From assembly GCA_043822305.1 (NCBI GenBank), contig JBDRBU010000027.1:1-29473 (forward strand): a stretch of DNA of 29,473 nucleotides, written 5' to 3'. Positions 2,771-10,990 of this stretch are shown one piece after another. The translations under genes were made by a program, and so were the position numbers. Each line of letters begins with the position of its first letter. Position 1 is the first letter of the stretch. Source of the DNA: Candidatus Firestoneibacteriota bacterium (GTDB taxonomy: Bacteria; Oederibacteriota; D2-FULL-39-29; JBDRBU01). The notes beneath the pieces are model-generated. The model was not told the DNA's origin, ran no database searches, and was given only the letters and a program-made list of their open reading frames with translations.

Positions 2771-5197
2771 CTATTTTTCTTTTGAAAGAGATTGATAATA
2801 CTTATCCACTAATTTTTTATATCTTGTTGGAATATTCTCCTTTTTCATATCTGCTATTATATCTTCATCTACACCATATTCTTTAAATAACTCAACCCTA
2901 TTCTTCAATTCACCGAATAATCCACCAAGCATCTCTAATTTCTTGCCAATAAATCTCCATCGTTTGTAGGCTCCATCTTTTTTTTCCTTATCTTCTTTTT
3001 TCATTTCGGCTTCACTCTCTTTTGGTTTCTTTGCTTCTTTCTTTAATTCTTCCATTTCTTTTTTTAATTCATTTGCAGCATCTTTATCTTTTTTCTCAAG
3101 TTCTTTCATTGCCTCTTCCAATTGTTTTAATAAATCTTTTAGTTCTTCTTCGCTCATCTTCTGTTCATCTGCTTTTTTTGCTGCTTCTTCTAATTTCTTT
3201 TGCAATTCATCTATCTTTTCTTTGGACAATTCATCTTCTTTTTTCTCTCCTTCTTTCTTTTCTGCCTTTTCGGCATCTTTCTTTTCCCCTTCTTTCTTTT
3301 CTTCTACTGATTTTTCCATCTGTTCTTGCATTAGTTTTTCTAAAGCTTCTTCTAATTTTTTCTCTGCCTCTAAAGACTTTTCTAATGCTTTTTCCATTTC
3401 CGTCTTTTCCATTTCTTTCTTTGATTCATCCATTTCTTCTTTAGAATCTTTTAATTTTTCCTGCGATTCTTTATCTTTCATTTCTTCTTTTTTAGCCTGC
3501 TCATCGGTCTTTTTAGCTAATTCATTTTGTTCTTTTTTAAACTCATCATTCTTTTTCATTTCTTCTTTCATGTCTTTAAGTTGGTCGGCCATTTCTTTAT
3601 TAACTTCCTTTTGCAGTTCATTTTGTTCTTTTTTATTCATCTCTTCTAACTTCTGACTAAGTTCATCCATTTTCTTCTGTGCTTCCTGGTTTTCCTGTTG
3701 TTTTTGCTCTTCACTCTTTTGCTGTTGATTTTCTTGATTCTGCATCTCTTCCATCTTTTGGGCTAAGTCTTTCATTTGCTCTGCTGCCTCTTTTTTCTCC
3801 TGATTCTGCTCCTGTTGTTCCTGCTGTTTTTCAAGATCTTTAGCCATCTCGTCTAATTTTTCTTTCATCTTCTTTTCTTGTGGATATGGAGGTGTTTCTT
3901 CTTGAGGTGAATCCTTTTTTTCAAATTCTTCATCAGCATCTGGTAAAATTACTTTAATGGCTAATGCATTTTCAAGTTTTTTCATATCACTCTTATCTTT
4001 TTTATTAAAATCATGCTTAGGAAATTCCGGCGGTAATTCAATGCCACCCTCCTCCCCTTTTCCGCCTGCCGCTTCTTTTGGCATTATTCCAAAATTATAT
4101 CCATCCCTTACTCTATTTGCCTCAACTACTACTCCGCCTCTATATCCTTCCGGTACACTTGTATAATCAGCATTTACTACCCACATTGAATACATTCCAT
4201 CTGTTATAAGATTATTTATAACATATTTTCCATTCTCGTCTGTTTTCCCTGTAGGTGCTACTCTTTTCGTATAATTCCTGGCAGCCACATAAATACCTTC
4301 TACTGGTTTACCATTCATAGTGACTATACCTGAAAGTCCTCCTGTTTTAGGTGGATTAAACTTAATCTGTTTTCCAGGAAGCCATGGTTTTTTGGCTAAC
4401 TCGGGGTTTTTTTTCTGCAATTCTTCCATTTTCTTTTCTGTTTGCTCTTTTTTGTCCTGTAAAGATTTTTTCATATCTTGATTTAATTTTTTCTGCTGTT
4501 CTAAAAGATCCTTTACCTTTTGTACTGTTTCTTTACCTTTCTCGTCTAATTTAAATTGCTCCTGTTTTTGCTTCTCCATACCTTTTGATAAATCTTGTTT
4601 TGCTAAATTTCTAACCAAGTTACTTACACCAGGTATATCTGTTGTACTTTTAAGAATAAACTCAGGAGCTATAAACGAGCCAATAAATGCTAATAAAAAG
4701 AGACCCATGGCCAGGACAACATACCTTTTACCTCTGGCCAGGGCTAATGCTTTTCTTAAATCCAATTTTAATGCCTTTTTAACTTTGTCCGTATCTACCC
4801 ATAATGCTTTTATTAATTGTGGAGAAAATATCTTTGCTGCTTCCTCTTGATTCATCTCAATAGAACAAATAAACCTGTCAAGTAACTGGGGATATTTCTT
4901 TTCTATCATTAAAGCTAAACTCTCCTCATCAATCTTGTCGAAAAATGGTTTTACCACATAAAAAACTATCATCAGAAAAATTGTAGTTAGTAATCCATAA
5001 AACATAAATTGCGCCGTTCTTGTCGGAAGTGGATACGCATAGTTTAAGCCTAACATAGCCAGATAAATAAAGAGACCCATAGTAACTGTTACTGAAAATC
5101 TTATGATTACTGCTAAAACTTTCTGGGTTTGGGCTACTTTATCTATTTCCGCTCTAATCTTTTTAAATTCTTCTTTTACATTTATTTCTTTTTTCAT
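2771..5197 (-). CDS. Membrane-anchored coiled-coil protein (DUF4175-like) with an internal carboxypeptidase-regulatory-like beta-sandwich
   Basis: Three N-terminal hydrophobic helices; A..IE..YPQL.DR motif; GGLSGIVT...GKPVEG...TDENGKY domain; long E/K/Q coiled coil; C-terminal IPTRYKKLVDKYYQSL; SD AGGAGG. Confidence 0.6.
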   Translation of the reverse strand: MKKEINVKEEFKKIRAEIDKVAQTQKVLAVIIRFSVTVTMGLFIYLAMLGLNYAYPLPTRTAQFMFYGLLTTIFLMIVFYVVKPFFDKIDEESLALMIEKKYPQLLDRFICSIEMNQEEAAKIFSPQLIKALWVDTDKVKKALKLDLRKALALARGKRYVVLAMGLFLLAFIGSFIAPEFILKSTTDIPGVSNLVRNLAKQDLSKGMEKQKQEQFKLDEKGKETVQKVKDLLEQQKKLNQDMKKSLQDKKEQTEKKMEELQKKNPELAKKPWLPGKQIKFNPPKTGGLSGIVTMNGKPVEGIYVAARNYTKRVAPTGKTDENGKYVINNLITDGMYSMWVVNADYTSVPEGYRGGVVVEANRVRDGYNFGIMPKEAAGGKGEEGGIELPPEFPKHDFNKKDKSDMKKLENALAIKVILPDADEEFEKKDSPQEETPPYPQEKKMKEKLDEMAKDLEKQQEQQEQNQEKKEAAEQMKDLAQKMEEMQNQENQQQKSEEQKQQENQEAQKKMDELSQKLEEMNKKEQNELQKEVNKEMADQLKDMKEEMKKNDEFKKEQNELAKKTDEQAKKEEMKDKESQEKLKDSKEEMDESKKEMEKTEMEKALEKSLEAEKKLEEALEKLMQEQMEKSVEEKKEGEKKDAEKAEKKEGEKKEDELSKEKIDELQKKLEEAAKKADEQKMSEEELKDLLKQLEEAMKELEKKDKDAANELKKEMEELKKEAKKPKESEAEMKKEDKEKKDGAYKRWRFIGKKLEMLGGLFGELKNRVELFKEYGVDEDIIADMKKENIPTRYKKLVDKYYQSLSKEK

Positions 5198-5214
5198 TTT
5201 GACACCCTCCTTTT

Positions 5215-5366
5215 TTTACCCACGTACCAGAAGGTGCGGGGTTTACCCACGCACCACCAAAGGGTGCGGGGTTTACCCACGCACCACCAAAGGGTGCGGG
5301 GTTTACCCACGCACCACCAAAGGGTGCGGGGTTTACCCACGCACCACCAAAGGGTGCGGGGTTTAC
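5215..5366 (+). repeat. Tandem array of a GC-rich hairpin unit: one 27-bp variant plus four identical 30-bp units (TTTACCCACGCACCACCAAAGGGTGCGGGG), closed by TTTAC
   Basis: Units at 5215-5241, 5242-5271, 5272-5301, 5302-5331 and 5332-5361, then TTTAC at 5362-5366; no spacers. Confidence 0.97.
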
Positions 5367-6664
5367 TTTTTTTCAATAGATTTAAAATATTTTTTAATTA
5401 AATTTTTATAAACAATTGGATATTCATCCTCTTTAAATAATTCATCCGCCTTAACACGTTCACCTTGTTTTATATATATTAGTGACATTATATTATAAGA
5501 TACCATTTTTAAATCTTCATCCGAAGACATAGAATTAAACATCTGCAAAGCTTCTTCATTATTGCCTTTAATCTTATGACACCATCCACTGTTGAATCTT
5601 GCTCTTTGGCTAATGGCATGACTGTAAGCATTAATCGCAGAATTATAATCCAACAAAAACAAATACATATTACCTAACTCATAATATGTTTCAGGTGTTA
5701 TTTTATTTTTTATTTTGTCTATTTTTGCAGATATAACTTTTCTTTCATTCGCTAATTTTATCATCTCATCAGACAATACTGATTGGATAGTATCAGGGAA
5801 CTCTTTCTTAACCCTTTTATAAAAAGAAATTGCCTCATCATATCTTTGTAAAGTTTCATATATATAACCTGATTTAAATAATGCTGAACTAACCTCTACT
5901 GGACTTTTGATATCGGATATAACTGTTTTTAATTTTTCTAAGGCATTATTATAACTTTTATTTTCAAAATCTAAACAAGCCTTCTTAAATAAATCCGAGA
6001 TAGATGTATCTACATTGGCTACACTAAAATCAATTTTCAAGTTGCCTTCTATAGTTCGAACAGAATCATCAAAGAAATTCAATAGCCAGAACCTTTGTGC
6101 TCTTTTATTGTACATTGTACTTCGTAGTAATCCATATATATCTATCTTTTGCTCCTGGAATATAATATTATCCGGAATATTAGAAATAAAATCAAAATTT
6201 AATACGTCCTTGATTGCCAATTTATCACTTACAATTTCTTTTATTACTTTATTAGGAATATATATCTTTTTAAAATCTTTTAGTTCTATATTATTTTTTA
6301 TATCAAATTCTACTACATTGTATAGTTCTTGAATAGAATTATCAAAAATTGCATTTTTATAGACAATGATTATTAATAATAAACATGTAACTGTAATAGC
6401 CAGTCTCCAGATTGGTTGAAAAATACTTATTTTACCTCGTTTTTCTAAGAGTGAATTACCTTTATTTAAAATGTTATAATCAAAGTCTTTACCAAAATCC
6501 TGCTTTTCTTGCCAAACACTCATAAAATCATTGATTTTATTTACATTTTCAAGATTCTCTTGACAGGCTTGACAGGTTTCTAAATGCCCTTTTATTTCCT
6601 GCATTTCTAAAGGCTCTAATTCATTATCCAAATATTCAATTATTTTTCCTTTATCACAATTCAT
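5363..6664 (-). CDS. Zinc-binding (zf-HC2) transmembrane anti-sigma factor with C-terminal TPR repeats
   Basis: N-terminal C..., YLDNEL, HLETCQAC; TM helix LAITVTCLLLIIIVY; TPR motifs (ALFKSGYIYE, YYELGNMY, ARFNSGWC); adjacent to the ECF sigma gene. Confidence 0.8.
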   Translation of the reverse strand: MNCDKGKIIEYLDNELEPLEMQEIKGHLETCQACQENLENVNKINDFMSVWQEKQDFGKDFDYNILNKGNSLLEKRGKISIFQPIWRLAITVTCLLLIIIVYKNAIFDNSIQELYNVVEFDIKNNIELKDFKKIYIPNKVIKEIVSDKLAIKDVLNFDFISNIPDNIIFQEQKIDIYGLLRSTMYNKRAQRFWLLNFFDDSVRTIEGNLKIDFSVANVDTSISDLFKKACLDFENKSYNNALEKLKTVISDIKSPVEVSSALFKSGYIYETLQRYDEAISFYKRVKKEFPDTIQSVLSDEMIKLANERKVISAKIDKIKNKITPETYYELGNMYLFLLDYNSAINAYSHAISQRARFNSGWCHKIKGNNEEALQMFNSMSSDEDLKMVSYNIMSLIYIKQGERVKADELFKEDEYPIVYKNLIKKYFKSIEKK

Positions 6665-6673
6665 ATTCTTCTC

Positions 6674-7276
6674 CTATTTAATAATACGAATGAATTCTAA
6701 ACTTGGAAGTGAAAAAGGAGTAAAATAAGGTTTTAATCTTTCTTCCAACTCATCATATGCACATTTGAGATGCCATTTTACCCAGTTTAAGTCCTTACCC
6801 AAAATTTCTGCAATTTCCTGATTCTTTAAACCCTGGTATTGCTTTAAAACTATAATTGACTTATGTTCCGCAGAAAGACTATTTATAACTTTTTTTATTA
6901 TTTGCTCTTTTTCTTTAGTCTCAATTTCTTCAGTAATCTCTTTGCTATCAACAACCTCTTTAATCTCTTCTGAACTATGGAATTTAGACCGTCTAATTTC
7001 ATCTAGACAAATATTTGTAGCAATTTTATATAGCCAACTTGAAAATTTTTTAGGAAAAATATACAAGTCTTTCTTTTTTAACAATTTTAAAAAAGTTTCC
7101 TGTGTTAAATCTTCTGCTTTTTGATAGTTTTGCATCATTCTACATATATAAGAAATTATCGGAAATTTGTATCTATTGTAAAGAATCTCAAACGGATAAG
7201 AATTACCAGTTTTAACGGCCAGCATCAATTCTTCATCAGAACTTTCTGGAGAGACATGTTTAATTTGGTTTTCCAT
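6674..7276 (-). CDS. ECF-type RNA polymerase sigma factor
   Basis: SDEELM, AEDLTQETFLK, FSSWLYKIATNICLD, region 4 EIAEILG; start taken at MENQ. Confidence 0.92.
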   Translation of the reverse strand: MENQIKHVSPESSDEELMLAVKTGNSYPFEILYNRYKFPIISYICRMMQNYQKAEDLTQETFLKLLKKKDLYIFPKKFSSWLYKIATNICLDEIRRSKFHSSEEIKEVVDSKEITEEIETKEKEQIIKKVINSLSAEHKSIIVLKQYQGLKNQEIAEILGKDLNWVKWHLKCAYDELEERLKPYFTPFSLPSLEFIRIIK

Positions 7277-7652
7277 ATTTTGCTTCAATTAGTGATTTAA
7301 TCCCGCCCCTTGGATTAAATTCGCCTTTAACCATTACCCATTTGGGTTTAACTGCTTTAACAAAATCTTTTAATATCTTATTTACAACATTTTCATAAAA
7401 AATACCCAGATTTCTATACGCTAAAATATAATACTTCAAAGATTTTAATTCAATACACCATTTATTCGGTATGTATTTAATAGTTATTACTCCAAAATCC
7501 GGTAGTTTACTTTTTGGGCAGATTGATGTAAATTCAGGAATAGTCATAGTAATTTCGTAATTTTTGAACTGATTCTCAAAACATTCTAATCTGGGCAACT
7601 TAACATTTATTCCTGCTTTAGCCTGTTTTTTATAATCTCTCATATTTTTCAC
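7260..7652 (-). CDS. queF: NADPH-dependent preQ0 reductase QueF (type I)
   Basis: PEFTSICP..KLPDFG, ELKSLKYY, FYEN.VN.I, FNPRGGI. Confidence 0.95.
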   Translation of the reverse strand: MKNMRDYKKQAKAGINVKLPRLECFENQFKNYEITMTIPEFTSICPKSKLPDFGVITIKYIPNKWCIELKSLKYYILAYRNLGIFYENVVNKILKDFVKAVKPKWVMVKGEFNPRGGIKSLIEAKYGKPN

Positions 7653-9430
7653 CCCTTTTTCAAAAAATTTAATAAATCTTTTAATTCTTTACAATTTAAC
7701 ACATCTTTTTTCTCAAGCCATCCACGTCTTGCCGTAATAACTCCAAAACTCATCCAATTTAGATTCTCTTTAGAATGTGCATCTGTATTTAGACAAACTA
7801 AAACATTTTTTTCTTTTGCTACTTTGCAATATACATCTATCAAATCCAATCTTTTAGGATAAGCATTTAATTCCAGGGCTACACCATAATCTTTTGCTGC
7901 TTTTATTATTTCATCCAAATCTATTTCATAACCTTCTCTTTCACCTAAAAGCCTTCCAGAAGGATGACCAAATATATGCATTTTTTTAGTTCTTATTGCC
8001 TTTATTACCCTTTTCGTCATCTCATCTTTTTTCATATTAAAATTCGTATGTATAGAACCAATAACAAAATCTAACTCGTTTAAGACATCATCATTATAAT
8101 CCAAACTACCATCGGATTTTATATCCACCTCGCTTCCGGATAGAACATAGAAATCTTTTAATTTCTCATTTAACTTTCTGATAGTCTTAATCTGAACTAA
8201 TAAACTCTTTTTATCCAGCCCCCGTGCAACTTTCAAGGACTGTGAGTGTTCTGTTATCCCTATATATTTATAACCCTTTTTTTGGCACTTGAGAATAATA
8301 TCCTCTAGATCATCAGTGCCATCACTCGCTTTTGTATGAATATGTAAATCACCCTTAATATCTGACTCTTCAACTAATTTTGGAATTTGATTTTTCGCTG
8401 CAAGTTCTATTTCCCCTCTATCTTCTCTTATTTCAGGTGGTATATATTGTAAACCTAAAACCTTGTAGATATGCTCTTCTGTATCACGAGCCATAACTTC
8501 ATTTTCCCTGGTAACACCATATTCGTTAACTTTAAGCCCTTTTTTTATAGCAAGTTCTCTTAGATGAATATTATGCTCTTTTGAACCAGTAAAGTAATTT
8601 AAGGCGGCACCGAAACATTCTGGTTTTATTACTCTTAAGTCCACTTGAATTCCATCTTTTGTTAAAATAGAAGACTTTGTCTCTCCTTTGGCTAAAACTT
8701 CACTTACAACATTTAATTCAGTAAATCTATCCATAATCTTTGTTGAAAAATTTGAAGTAATTAAAATATCTATATCTTTTATCGTTTCTTTCCCTCTTCT
8801 TACACTTCCGGCAACTTCAATTTTATCTATTTCTTTTATTTTCTTTAATTTATTTATTATTAAATTTGCAAGTGGAAGAGCAACACCAAGTGTAACTTTA
8901 CCTTTCCACTTTTTTAGGAATTCTATACCTTTCAAAATTTTTTCTTCAGATTTCTTACCCATTCCCGGCAATTTACATAATTTATGTTCTTTGGCTGCTT
9001 GTTCTAATTCTTCCATGCTTTTTATCTTTAATTTTTCAAAGAACTGTTTTACTTTCTTTGGCCCCATCCCCGACACAGAAAGTAAACCCCGCACCCTCTG
9101 GTGGTGCGTGGGTAAACCCCGCACCCTCTGGTGGTGCGTGGGTAAATCTATCAACCCTTCCGGAAATTTTCTTTCCAATTCTTCAAGTTGACTAATTTTT
9201 CCTGTTTTTACATATTCTTCTATCTTTAAAGCAATCCTTTCTCCTACTCCAGAAATTTCTCTTAAACCTTTCATACCCTTTTCTTTGTAAATTTTTTCTA
9301 AATCCACCGGATATACACTTAAAATCTCAGATGCTTTATAATATGCCCTTACCCTAAACATATTCTCACCATCTATTTCAAGAAGTTTGCTTATCTTATA
9401 AAACATTTCCCCTATCTTTGCATTATTCAT
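7649..9430 (-). CDS. polX: DNA polymerase X / PHP 3'-5' exonuclease with a 20-aa repeat-derived insertion
   Basis: ENMFRVRAY, AGSVRR, KDIDIL, QVDLR, YFTGSKEHN; PHP motifs GDLHIHT, TEHS and NTDAH. Confidence 0.95.
   Translation of the reverse strand: MNNAKIGEMFYKISKLLEIDGENMFRVRAYYKASEILSVYPVDLEKIYKEKGMKGLREISGVGERIALKIEEYVKTGKISQLEELERKFPEGLIDLPTHHQRVRGLPTHHQRVRGLLSVSGMGPKKVKQFFEKLKIKSMEELEQAAKEHKLCKLPGMGKKSEEKILKGIEFLKKWKGKVTLGVALPLANLIINKLKKIKEIDKIEVAGSVRRGKETIKDIDILITSNFSTKIMDRFTELNVVSEVLAKGETKSSILTKDGIQVDLRVIKPECFGAALNYFTGSKEHNIHLRELAIKKGLKVNEYGVTRENEVMARDTEEHIYKVLGLQYIPPEIREDRGEIELAAKNQIPKLVEESDIKGDLHIHTKASDGTDDLEDIILKCQKKGYKYIGITEHSQSLKVARGLDKKSLLVQIKTIRKLNEKLKDFYVLSGSEVDIKSDGSLDYNDDVLNELDFVIGSIHTNFNMKKDEMTKRVIKAIRTKKMHIFGHPSGRLLGEREGYEIDLDEIIKAAKDYGVALELNAYPKRLDLIDVYCKVAKEKNVLVCLNTDAHSKENLNWMSFGVITARRGWLEKKDVLNCKELKDLLNFLKKG
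9082..9146 (-). repeat. Two tandem 30-bp hairpin units (TTTACCCACGCACCACCAGAGGGTGCGGGG) plus TTTAC, in frame within polX
   Basis: Reverse complement matches the 5242-5361 unit at 29/30 positions; encodes LPTHHQRVRG twice. Confidence 0.97.
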
Positions 9431-9445
9431 ATTTTTCCAATACTT

Positions 9446-9760
9446 TCATATACTACTATTTATCCAATCCAAATAATCCTTATTACCATCAATGATTGGT
9501 AAAGCAATTACTTCCGGGACTGAATAACTATGGATTTTTTTAACTTCTTTAATCAATTTATTTAAAACACTTTTTTTTGTTTTTATAACGAGTAACAATT
9601 CTTTTGACTTTTCAATTTTTTCCTTCCACCAGTAAGTTGAAGAAATATTAGGAATTTCATTTACACATGCAGCCAGTTTGTTTTTAATCAAATACTCTGT
9701 AATTTTCTTGCTTTCTTTTTTACTGCTTACTGTAATAAATACTACTATATAATTTTTCAT
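9446..9760 (-). CDS. cutA: Divalent-cation tolerance protein CutA
   Basis: LAACVN, STYWW, HSYSVPEVIALPI. Confidence 0.95.
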   Translation of the reverse strand: MKNYIVVFITVSSKKESKKITEYLIKNKLAACVNEIPNISSTYWWKEKIEKSKELLLVIKTKKSVLNKLIKEVKKIHSYSVPEVIALPIIDGNKDYLDWINSSI

Positions 9761-9766
9761 ATATGA

Positions 9767-10990
9767 TTAAGAGAAAAATATCAGTAATAACCCGAGTAAA
9801 GGTAAAAAAAGTGATAAAAGAATTAAATATGGATAAACATCTGTTATCTCTACTCCAAAATATTCACAGGTAAATAAATAACATAAATGAATAGGGGATA
9901 ACATTACGCCTGTATATCCGCTTATAAACGCAAAAGATAAATAATGCAAATCAACTACTCCACCGTTAGTTATAAGTGGAAGTATTAATGGGAAGGTAAT
10001 TCCAACAAACGCCTGCACAACACCTGTTAGAAGTCCTACTAAGAAAGGCATGAAAAATAAAATGACTAAAGTATTTAATTTCATTATGGTAAAAAAATTT
10101 TTTAAATCAATTATAGCCTTACTTACTTCTAAAATATTTTTAAAATACATAACCCCAAATATTAAAAACATGATTTGCAAACTAAATGATTCTTTTAAAA
10201 AATTCAAAACATCCTTTAAGGAGAATTTATAAATAAAAAATAAGCATAAGATTATAACAATAAGTGAAATTATTAGACGAAGTTTAAAAAACATTACCGA
10301 AATTATTAAAAACAAGATAGGGAATACTCCTTCTAATAATGAAATTAAGTTGTTTTTAAATGGTTTATTTTCTCTTTTGTCTTCAATAACTTTTGGAACA
10401 TTACGAAATATAACAAACCAACCAGCCATTAACATAAATAGCGGATACCATATCTGAAATTTACTTATATCGCCTAAAGGAACACCAGAAAGAAATGAGG
10501 CTAAAATAATACCAGGATATAATGGAAAAACTGGTTCCCAAATATGTCTGAACCAGTAATTTACAAAACTCTTCTTTACATTATTGATATTTAAATCTTT
10601 ACTTACGGCACCAACTAATGGTGCTGAGAATCTTGCACCTCCTGCGGAAGGTAATGTTCCCAGAAATACCGGGAAGAATATTGCTGCTTTTCTAACATCT
10701 TTAATAAAAAAACCTATGGCATCAATCATTCTATCAAACACACCACTTTTACGCATAATGATTTCTAAAAGAGGAATAAGATATAATATTAACATTAATT
10801 CTAAAGTATCATTACTGATTAGAGTCTTAAAAACAAGTATAAATAATTTATTAATTTCTACTTTGAATATTAAACCTAAAATCCCTCCGGCTACTGTCAA
10901 AGAGACCCCCAAAGACACCTTAAGCCTGAGTAATATTAAAATTATTATAAATACTAGAATCAAATAAATTAAACTAGAAAATACTTCCAT
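9767..10990 (-). CDS. DUF401 family multi-pass membrane protein
   Basis: LPSAGGARFSAP, NYWFRHIWE..FPLYPG and GVMLSPIHLC motifs; many TM helices. Confidence 0.8.
   Translation of the reverse strand: MEVFSSLIYLILVFIIILILLRLKVSLGVSLTVAGGILGLIFKVEINKLFILVFKTLISNDTLELMLILYLIPLLEIIMRKSGVFDRMIDAIGFFIKDVRKAAIFFPVFLGTLPSAGGARFSAPLVGAVSKDLNINNVKKSFVNYWFRHIWEPVFPLYPGIILASFLSGVPLGDISKFQIWYPLFMLMAGWFVIFRNVPKVIEDKRENKPFKNNLISLLEGVFPILFLIISVMFFKLRLIISLIVIILCLFFIYKFSLKDVLNFLKESFSLQIMFLIFGVMYFKNILEVSKAIIDLKNFFTIMKLNTLVILFFMPFLVGLLTGVVQAFVGITFPLILPLITNGGVVDLHYLSFAFISGYTGVMLSPIHLCYLFTCEYFGVEITDVYPYLILLSLFLPLLGLLLIFFS

Follow-up and report, generated by a model that had tools for sequence, protein, structure and literature searches.

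A TTTAC-bounded hairpin repeat read in frame in polX and other genes of a Candidatus Firestoneibacteriota genome

Introduction

Rickettsia palindromic elements (RPEs), of which RPE-1 is longer than 100 bp, are reportedly palindromic repeats that sit in frame in many unrelated housekeeping genes, adding peptides to their products while the genes stay intact. Here we describe a far shorter hairpin repeat, bounded by the pentamer TTTAC, that is inserted in the polX gene on contig JBDRBU010000027.1 of a Candidatus Firestoneibacteriota bacterium (assembly GCA_043822305.1). The whole of this contig, 29,473 nt, was analysed and is called the window below; it is contig C27 of an assembly of 125 contigs and 2.15 Mb with a G+C content of 31.6%.

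The repetitive extragenic palindromic sequences (REPs) offer a second point of comparison. As set out in those parts of PMC3733652 (Di Nocera et al. 2013) that concern intragenic repeats, the GTAG and CGTC families are GC-rich stem-loops of 20-40 bp, with stems of 8-13 bp, loops of 4-7 nt and tens of copies. Some fall wholly inside open reading frames (ORFs) that encode known proteins, many of the intragenic repeats being in replication and repair genes, and lengthen the product by additional residues; the CGTC repeats are described there as having no dedicated transposase, and RPEs are mentioned alongside the intragenic REPs. Insertion beside a short, fixed motif is in turn a property of the insertion sequences (ISs) of the IS200/IS605 group: IS608 inserts 3' of TTAC beside imperfect palindromes and disfavours purines at position +1, while ISDra2 inserts at TTGAT (PMC5934647, in its account of target choice). 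In-frame intragenic palindromic repeats are thus already known, as RPEs and, in the portions of PMC3733652 cited above, as GTAG and CGTC REPs. Within the open-access literature we found no description of an in-frame hairpin flanked by TTTAC.

Results

The polX gene (7649..9430, minus strand) encodes a protein of 593 aa with PolX and PHP domains, as judged from its ORF, its homologs and a structural model. Its sense strand reads TTTAC-CCACGCACCACCAGAGGGTGCGGGG twice and then TTTAC TTT, so that two identical 30-nt units, each made of TTTAC and a 25-nt bulged hairpin, lie in frame between three TTTAC junctions (9082..9146, minus strand; placed from the sequence, a genome census and folding). The order on the minus strand is TTTAC 9146-9142, core 9141-9117, TTTAC 9116-9112, core 9111-9087 and TTTAC 9086-9082; read on the plus strand it is GTAAA 9082-9086, core 9087-9111, GTAAA 9112-9116, the identical core 9117-9141 and GTAAA 9142-9146. 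The ORF runs across the insert as PEGLID-LPTHHQRVRG-LPTHHQRVRG-LLSVSGMGPKK, with LPTHHQRVRG added twice. An earlier note on this DNA, made from its letters, had described a twofold in-frame hairpin insertion in polX at TTTAC, and the sequence of 9082-9146 and its translation agree on this. It had also placed the only stop of the unit inside the target word, and a six-frame check of the units concurs: they are open in five of the six frames, and the sixth meets a TAA within GTAAA.

With 76% G+C, the unit core stands out from a window of 30% G+C. Folded as single-stranded DNA (ssDNA), the unit has a stem of 10 bp with a single bulged A and a 7-nt loop, ACCC-A-CGCACC pairing with GGTGCG-GGGT (dG -10 kcal/mol, z -4.7), and none of 200 shuffled sequences was equally stable. 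A 26-mer of the unit has six matches in the window at up to 3 mismatches, compared with none in 100 shuffles, and a search of window positions 5000-9400 against Rfam gave no match at E values up to 1.

The insert corresponds to PolX residues 96-115. It is absent from all nine PolX orthologs of relatives (42-60% identity), in which PEGLL(E/D) runs straight into LLSV.G.GPKK, and from all five closer homologs. The two closest, found in a large protein collection (83% and 80% identity over the alignment, 572 aa), lack the 20 residues and read PEGLVD-LLSIPGMGPKK and PPGLAD-LLSVPGMGPKK at the insertion point; the nearest named relative of the protein comes from a Candidatus Firestonebacteria metagenome-assembled genome (MAG), at 57-59% identity. 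The same point can be read in DNA, since two metagenome contigs (L064 and L065) encode the 80% homolog. There the sequence is GCA GAT TTA CTT TCT GTT, i.e. GCAGATTTACTTTCTGTT, where the polX host has ATA GAT, the 60 nt and then TTA CTT TCT GTG. The relative's DNA shows an empty site, GATTTACTTTCTGT, with a single TTTACTTT exactly at the insertion point, which indicates that insertion in polX took place into an intact GATTTACTTTCTGT. The TTT immediately 3' of the final TTTAC (9079..9081, minus strand) is assigned to this pre-existing target, written TTTAC/TTT with the slash at the point of insertion, because the T run codes for part of a conserved Leu-Leu-Ser. Peptide-free close homologs and an empty TTTAC site in a relative, both anticipated in the earlier note, were therefore found.

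An AlphaFold2 model built on a 10-sequence alignment (mean pLDDT, the predicted local distance difference score, 86.8) places residues 98-112, all below 50, in a coil between two helices, and the insert is accordingly predicted to form a 20-residue disordered loop in an otherwise confident model. Residues that are invariant in the 10 PolX sequences, e.g. D219, D221, D264, H363 and H365, which we take to be the catalytic palm and PHP residues, are all retained.

The polX units belong to a genome-wide family. Both arms around a loop of 3-10 nt matched 55 times in the assembly; matches were scored on flank and orientation criteria, and the 16 that fell short of 8 out of 12 were dropped. The 39 good copies that passed group as 32 loci or arrays; these are spread over 24 contigs and occur in both orientations and in four frames. 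The further genomic copies foreseen in the earlier note do exist. The family core is 22 or 25 nt and gives, with TTTAC, a unit of 27 nt (13 copies) or 30 nt (24 copies), with single units of 31 and 33 nt. Common arms carry three loop types, AGAA, ACCAGAG/ACCAAAG and AATATCT, and an identical 25-mer is present at six loci, which we take to hold recent copies. An nhmmer profile search recovered 44 known matches and 12 new ones, about 7 of which look like diverged or truncated members. The 31-nt unit (locus C7_32393, with a 26-nt core) lies directly against the 3' end of a cobalamin riboswitch, and its membership of the family is doubtful. The riboswitch itself (3' part at C7:32412-32501, equivalent to L070 5413-5502, minus strand; 30.8 bits against a gathering score of 31.5) is cut by the contig end and lies upstream of a B12-related operon.

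Beyond this assembly, a pattern search of 40 relatives returned only perfect palindromes in 2 GC-rich genomes and did not find the family; the strict pattern found no family copies in metagenome contigs. A collection of species representatives gave one match, a single copy in a genome designated G041. This is an unrelated 0.6-Mb MAG with a lone intergenic hairpin, TTTAC-CCACGCACC-GCGTA-AGGTGCGGGG (L027 1501-1529; G041:C56:2059-2082), and no other copies; it is probably a chance occurrence or an ordinary terminator. Within our assembly there is also a sister hairpin family, TTTAC-CCTGTACC-(A/G)ATAT-GGTGCAGGG-TT(C/T)A(C/T), with a 27-nt unit and the same 5' TTTAC (C9:7450-7472, C83:843-865, C85:36032-36054, C97:4052-4074 and C107:7510-7532). 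Its stem is free of bulges and differs by compensatory changes, and its members are mostly intergenic and adjoin another repeat (CCCTGTCTCAAGAGACGGGG).

It is scarcely credible, given this census, that the repeat is not mobile at all and represents an assembly artefact or an old peptide repeat encoded by the host. Either would have to account for a 22-25-nt core at 32 loci, spread over 24 contigs, two orientations and four frames and specifying four unrelated peptides, and for an insert that is missing from the closest PolX homologs; a 30-nt period is, moreover, presumably well under assembly k-mer sizes. What can be said for an artefact is confined to read coverage: the one sequencing run found (0.14 of sampled words) gave three identical 151-nt contigs. 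Placed on window positions 4500-10000, these fall at 6524-6674, 8587-8737 and 8752-8902, and miss both the polX array and a second array at 5215..5366.

Alignment of the 32 loci defines the target. On the left of the core, each position of TTTAC is conserved at 28-31 of the 32 loci, with no conservation further upstream. On the right the corresponding figure is 25-29 of 32, and T occupies positions +6 to +8 in 24-27 of 32. The exact pentamer is found on the left at 22 loci, on the right at 17 and on both sides at 11. The copies are thus bounded by TTTAC, as proposed beforehand, and flank conservation together with the empty site leads us to define the target as TTTAC/TTT: the pentamer of the earlier note stands, and its extent is better written with the T run than as TTTAC alone.

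An identical pentamer on both sides could also mark a minimal MITE (a miniature transposable element with inverted repeats) moved by a DDE-type transposase, in which the 9-10-nt arms would be terminal inverted repeats and TTTAC a 5-bp target-site duplication. Two loci look the part, as the three junction pentamers on contig C118 are all TGTAC and the flanks on C5 both carry a TTAA variant. A variant pentamer is unshared between the two sides, however, in 16 of the 18 non-consensus loci (shared in 2), and on C118 an arm mutation is also common to both units; together with TGTAC this points to local duplication there, which accounts for that case. Since an element of 22-25 nt is in addition far under known MITE sizes, and no IS with these arms as its ends is present in the assembly, we consider a MITE very unlikely.

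The target word also accounts for where the family is found. With gene context defined by 1765 long ORFs (88.6% of the DNA), TTTACTTT occurs 743 times in the genome: 274 sites are antisense in phase 0, 156 antisense in phase 1, 90 sense in phase 0, 22 sense in phase 1, 68 sense in phase 2 and 133 intergenic. In the same order of contexts, the 32 loci number 12, 4, 6, 0, 4 and 6, where TTTACTTT sites predict 11.8, 6.7, 3.9, 0.9, 2.9 and 5.7. This distribution fits target availability (G=4.6, simulated P=0.53), whereas the loci reject a uniform spread across the five open frames (P=0.003); without the doubtful locus C7_32393 the values are P=0.52 and P=0.004, respectively. The loci look as if they had been drawn at random from the occurrences of the target word.

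ORFs of at least 120 aa enclose 26 of the 32 loci. Every unit is a multiple of three and free of stops in any frame that an intragenic TTTAC can have; translation of the host gene therefore continues across it, and each unit adds a peptide of 9-10 residues. This neutrality of frame and stop explains why the family sits in genes: its contexts equal the availability of the target. There are 25 distinct host proteins of 150 aa or more; 20 were scanned against Pfam, and 19 of these have domains. Hosts include KsgA, RimP, CheA, PyrK (the dihydroorotate dehydrogenase electron-transfer subunit), FtsW, FtsK, MurF, MoeA, RibF, AroE and LipA, as well as two TMEM260-like glycosyltransferases and a TamB-like protein in which two copies lie apart from each other. 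The unit is read as one of four unrelated peptides, FTHAPPEGAGFT, LPTHHQRVRGL, VNPAPSGGAWVN and KPRTFWCVGK, according to its orientation and phase. The NPAPSGGAW reading is dominant and the YPRTTKGCG reading absent because of where TTTACTTT falls in an AT-rich genome with a lysine-rich proteome (AAA GTA AA), and selection on the peptides need not be invoked for this skew.

Comparison of 10 host proteins with their homologs revealed a clear extra segment in 6, a partial one in 2 and a variable region in the other 2. The extra segment is 20 aa long in PolX, exactly 10 aa in LipA (against 5exi), 9-11 aa in MurF, PyrK and MoeA and 10-11 aa in a sugar-kinase-like host. AroE and RibF show partial gaps of 8 and 4 aa, and in KsgA and CheA the unit lies in a variable region of the host, which makes these two alignments uninformative.

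The second array in the window (5215..5366, plus strand; found by pattern search and in the sequence) is intergenic and comprises five units followed by a T run at 5367-5373. A 22-nt core at 5220-5241 is joined to 25-nt cores at 5247-5271, 5277-5301, 5307-5331 and 5337-5361, with TTTAC in front of the first and after each. The array separates two cistrons of the same strand, since the ribosome-binding site and start of the downstream gene (an ORF of 808 aa, 2771..5197, minus strand) directly follow it. On the other side, an ORF of 433 aa (5363..6664, minus strand) ends in a TAA at 5363-5365 that lies inside GTAAA at the array edge, in the one frame where the target itself is a stop. The 808-aa protein has a long, extremely Lys/Glu-rich region of low complexity.

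Apart from this size difference, units are identical within each array and the arrays differ in their loops, with ACCAAAG at 5247-5361 and ACCAGAG in polX. Such a pattern, and the identity of the two polX units, could reflect a single insertion in polX followed by tandem duplication through slippage between TTTAC repeats, to which we give even odds. On the other hand, the polX units equal the family consensus, so that two fresh insertions would look alike, and the array at 5215-5366 mixes 22- and 25-nt cores, so that repeated insertion at occupied sites does happen: with two size classes joined, duplication alone is insufficient there. The earlier note had the hairpin inserted twice in polX; the two units are confirmed, and two insertions cannot be distinguished from one insertion and a local duplication. 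Of six arrays examined, five have their odd or degenerate unit in the 5'-most position. Growth at the 3' end would agree with such a polarity, in that only the last TTTAC still has TTT after it, and so would slippage in which the older copy later decayed.

The last units have a further property. Only two terminator-like matches, on consensus alone, occur in window positions 4800-9600, at 9090-9108 (minus strand) and 5340-5358 (plus strand), and both consist of the last array unit and the target T run. The polX match is in the sense orientation, about 290 nt into the gene, and such a unit plus T run may dampen polX expression.

Six ORFs in the genome exceed the Y1_Tnp cut-off, one of them IS200-like and five RAYT-like (223-323 aa). 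The latter match REP_Tyr_transpos over its full length at 68-77 bits, under the cut-off of 80. These RAYT/TIRYT-like genes are located at C51:22716-23429, C100:23000-23671, C81:27216-27923, C81:21933-22904 and C68:4363-5040. Four of the five have flanking repeat families of their own (GGGGACAG..., GGGGTCAG..., GGGGTCAAACC; 9-24 k-mer occurrences), and a search for such a family around the fifth, on C68, found none. The flanks fit the 'TIRtron' class with GGGGWSAS motifs, as far as it is characterised in the relevant parts of Di Nocera et al. 2013. Perfect inverted repeats enclose the C100 copy, and the 323-aa RAYT-like protein has a DnaA-C-like tail.

The IS200-like element, with a TnpA of 146 aa, is present in several copies at contig ends (C64:26900-27425, C2:1-200, C86:11800-11942 and C87:1-140). 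Its hairpin, CCTCGACGC-TCT-GCGTCGGGG, has the same CCNCG...CGGGG foot as the TTTAC hairpin. These copies were rejected as a parent of the family, because their hairpin and ends differ and the ends lie away from TTTAC. A CRISPR origin was likewise dismissed, as the units abut without spacers and the CRISPR repeat of the genome (32 nt, on C39) is another sequence. That array (C39:22519-23270) has at least 12 repeats (GTTTCAATCCACGCCCCCGCACGGGGGGCGAC) at a spacing of 64-66 nt and is unrelated to the hairpin family.

Discussion

The hairpin unit entered polX at a pre-existing TTTAC/TTT, is read through in frame there and elsewhere, and is distributed over the genome as its target is. With a probability of roughly 60%, we read the 60 nt in polX as two copies of a lineage-specific, non-autonomous, target-specific mini hairpin repeat, akin to REPs and RPEs, that is moved in trans by an HUH/Y1 transposase. 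In this reading both enzyme and mechanism are inferred. The unit would travel as ssDNA, mobilised by a tyrosine (HUH/Y1) transposase whose cut falls after TTTAC in the way that IS200/IS605 enzymes cut after TTAC or TTGAT. The inserted piece would be the core with its 3' TTTAC, and would thereby rebuild the target at its own 3' end; arrays might then extend head-to-tail at that end, or through slippage between TTTAC repeats. We favour an HUH enzyme because of the parallels with IS608 and ISDra2, the bulged base in the hairpin and the abundance of such enzymes in this genome.

Spread might alternatively have needed no enzyme. By a double template switch, a nascent strand ending in TTTAC would jump to an existing copy, copy the unit and return at TTTAC(TTT), the hairpin stalling the polymerase at both ends, and arrays would arise by slippage, the same process within one molecule. 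The unit is indeed bounded by 5-nt direct repeats, and the preference on the 3' side extends to TTTACTTT, an 8-nt microhomology common to most donor copies. Units are alike within arrays and arrays unlike each other; half, truncated or diverged copies occur; and neither a cognate transposase nor an autonomous parent was found in the assembly. Microhomology of 5-8 nt would, however, have had to work with unusual efficiency to reach about 31 unlinked loci. The family occupies only 32 of the 743 TTTACTTT sites, other hairpins with short flanking repeats show no similar behaviour, and arms and tag remain constant across the three loop subfamilies, as if a protein recognised arm plus tag. We therefore regard template switching as unlikely.

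Movement in trans by an HUH transposase has its own difficulties. The earlier note looked to an enzyme encoded elsewhere and to a RAYT or TnpA gene flanked by the unit. While the target-specific hairpin element that adds peptides is substantiated by its copies, flanks and empty site, no mobilising enzyme was found, and the TTTAC hairpin flanks none of the six Y1 transposase genes of the genome, around which other repeats or none were found. The assembly contains no longer element ending in the hairpin arms, which are confined to short hairpins, and the genome has no TnpB; the sole weak match to PF07282 is the zinc ribbon of an asparagine-synthase-like protein and was discarded. Conservation of the right TTTAC does not exceed that of the left (exact at 17 and 22 of 32 loci, respectively), which does not favour assigning the right pentamer to the element. 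A single hairpin abuts both pentamers here, whereas IS608, in so far as the published account covers its ends, has two subterminal hairpins and separate cleavage sites. Those cleavage sites reportedly lie 10-19 nt from the hairpins. Covariation is slight (2 compensatory pairs among 30 distinct units) and says little either way on structure. Lastly, the collections searched gave no second genome with the family, no presence/absence polymorphism was obtained, and the contigs of the one sequencing run span neither array.

More speculatively, the family might represent an undescribed class of minimal, 'codon-neutral' mobile DNA. Such an element would be a hairpin of 27/30 nt made harmless by construction, its only possible stop lying in the target word; it would colonise genes as freely as the target occurs, without detectable selection on location, and be moved by an unlinked enzyme or by template switching, outside the known REP-RAYT and IS200/IS605 arrangements. 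We think this improbable. For the question of how repeats of the REP and RPE type spread, and why some come to be in frame in essential genes, the TTTAC family is a clean case: unit length and stop-free frames explain tolerance within genes, and the spread of its loci tracks the target with no sign of selection on location. Its defined target and the six candidate Y1 transposases make the chemistry of insertion testable with oligonucleotides. For annotators, it follows that NPAPSGGAW, THAPPEGAG and LPTHHQRVRG loops of 9-10 residues in proteins of this lineage are repeat-derived.

The REPs are similar to this family in being short, GC-rich, imperfect palindromes in many copies (here 39, with 22-25-nt cores and a 10-bp bulged stem) that can be read through within genes. 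Against the REPs as characterised in the parts of PMC3733652 used here, the family differs in being flanked by a direct repeat of TTTAC (GTAAA on the opposite strand), one on each side and with no GTAG or CGTC, where REPs have one of the latter tags at one end, in forming only head-to-tail arrays and no inverted dimers, head-to-head or tail-to-tail, and in being intragenic at 26 of 32 loci where REPs are mainly extragenic. The definition of a REP thus fails on four points: the tag, its one-sided position, the inverted dimers and the extragenic location. To these can be added a defined TTTAC/TTT target with a documented empty site and, in contrast to REPtrons, the lack of a RAYT gene flanked by the TTTAC hairpin in the genome.

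The RPEs, which we compare by description only, share the presence of a palindromic repeat in frame in many protein-coding genes. Our units are 27-30 nt long against more than 100 bp for RPE-1, and the lineages are unrelated. A flanking pentamer with a defined target is a feature of the present family, and none is described for RPEs where PMC3733652 mentions them. With IS608 and ISDra2, to the extent that PMC5934647 details them in the sections concerned, the family has in common insertion beside a T-rich tetra- or pentanucleotide, an imperfect hairpin, the presence of Y1 genes in the genome and an influence of the base after the cut (a pyrimidine there, T in 26 of 32 here). An element of the IS200/IS605 type would, by the same partial account, have two subterminal hairpins with guide sequences where ours has one, and no tnpA is flanked by the hairpin; the target is fixed as TTTAC, and the second TTTAC could be either an element end or a duplication. 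As for the TIRtrons and TIRYT cassettes treated in the relevant parts of Di Nocera et al. 2013, the five RAYT/TIRYT-like genes are candidate enzymes in trans whose own repeats have spread, although the TTTAC hairpin bears no relation to these repeats (GGGGACAG..., GGGGTCAG...). What sets this family apart is the two-sided pentamer, the 8-nt target with its empty site, the head-to-tail arrays, a unit neutral in frame and stop, and a distribution that equals the availability of the target.

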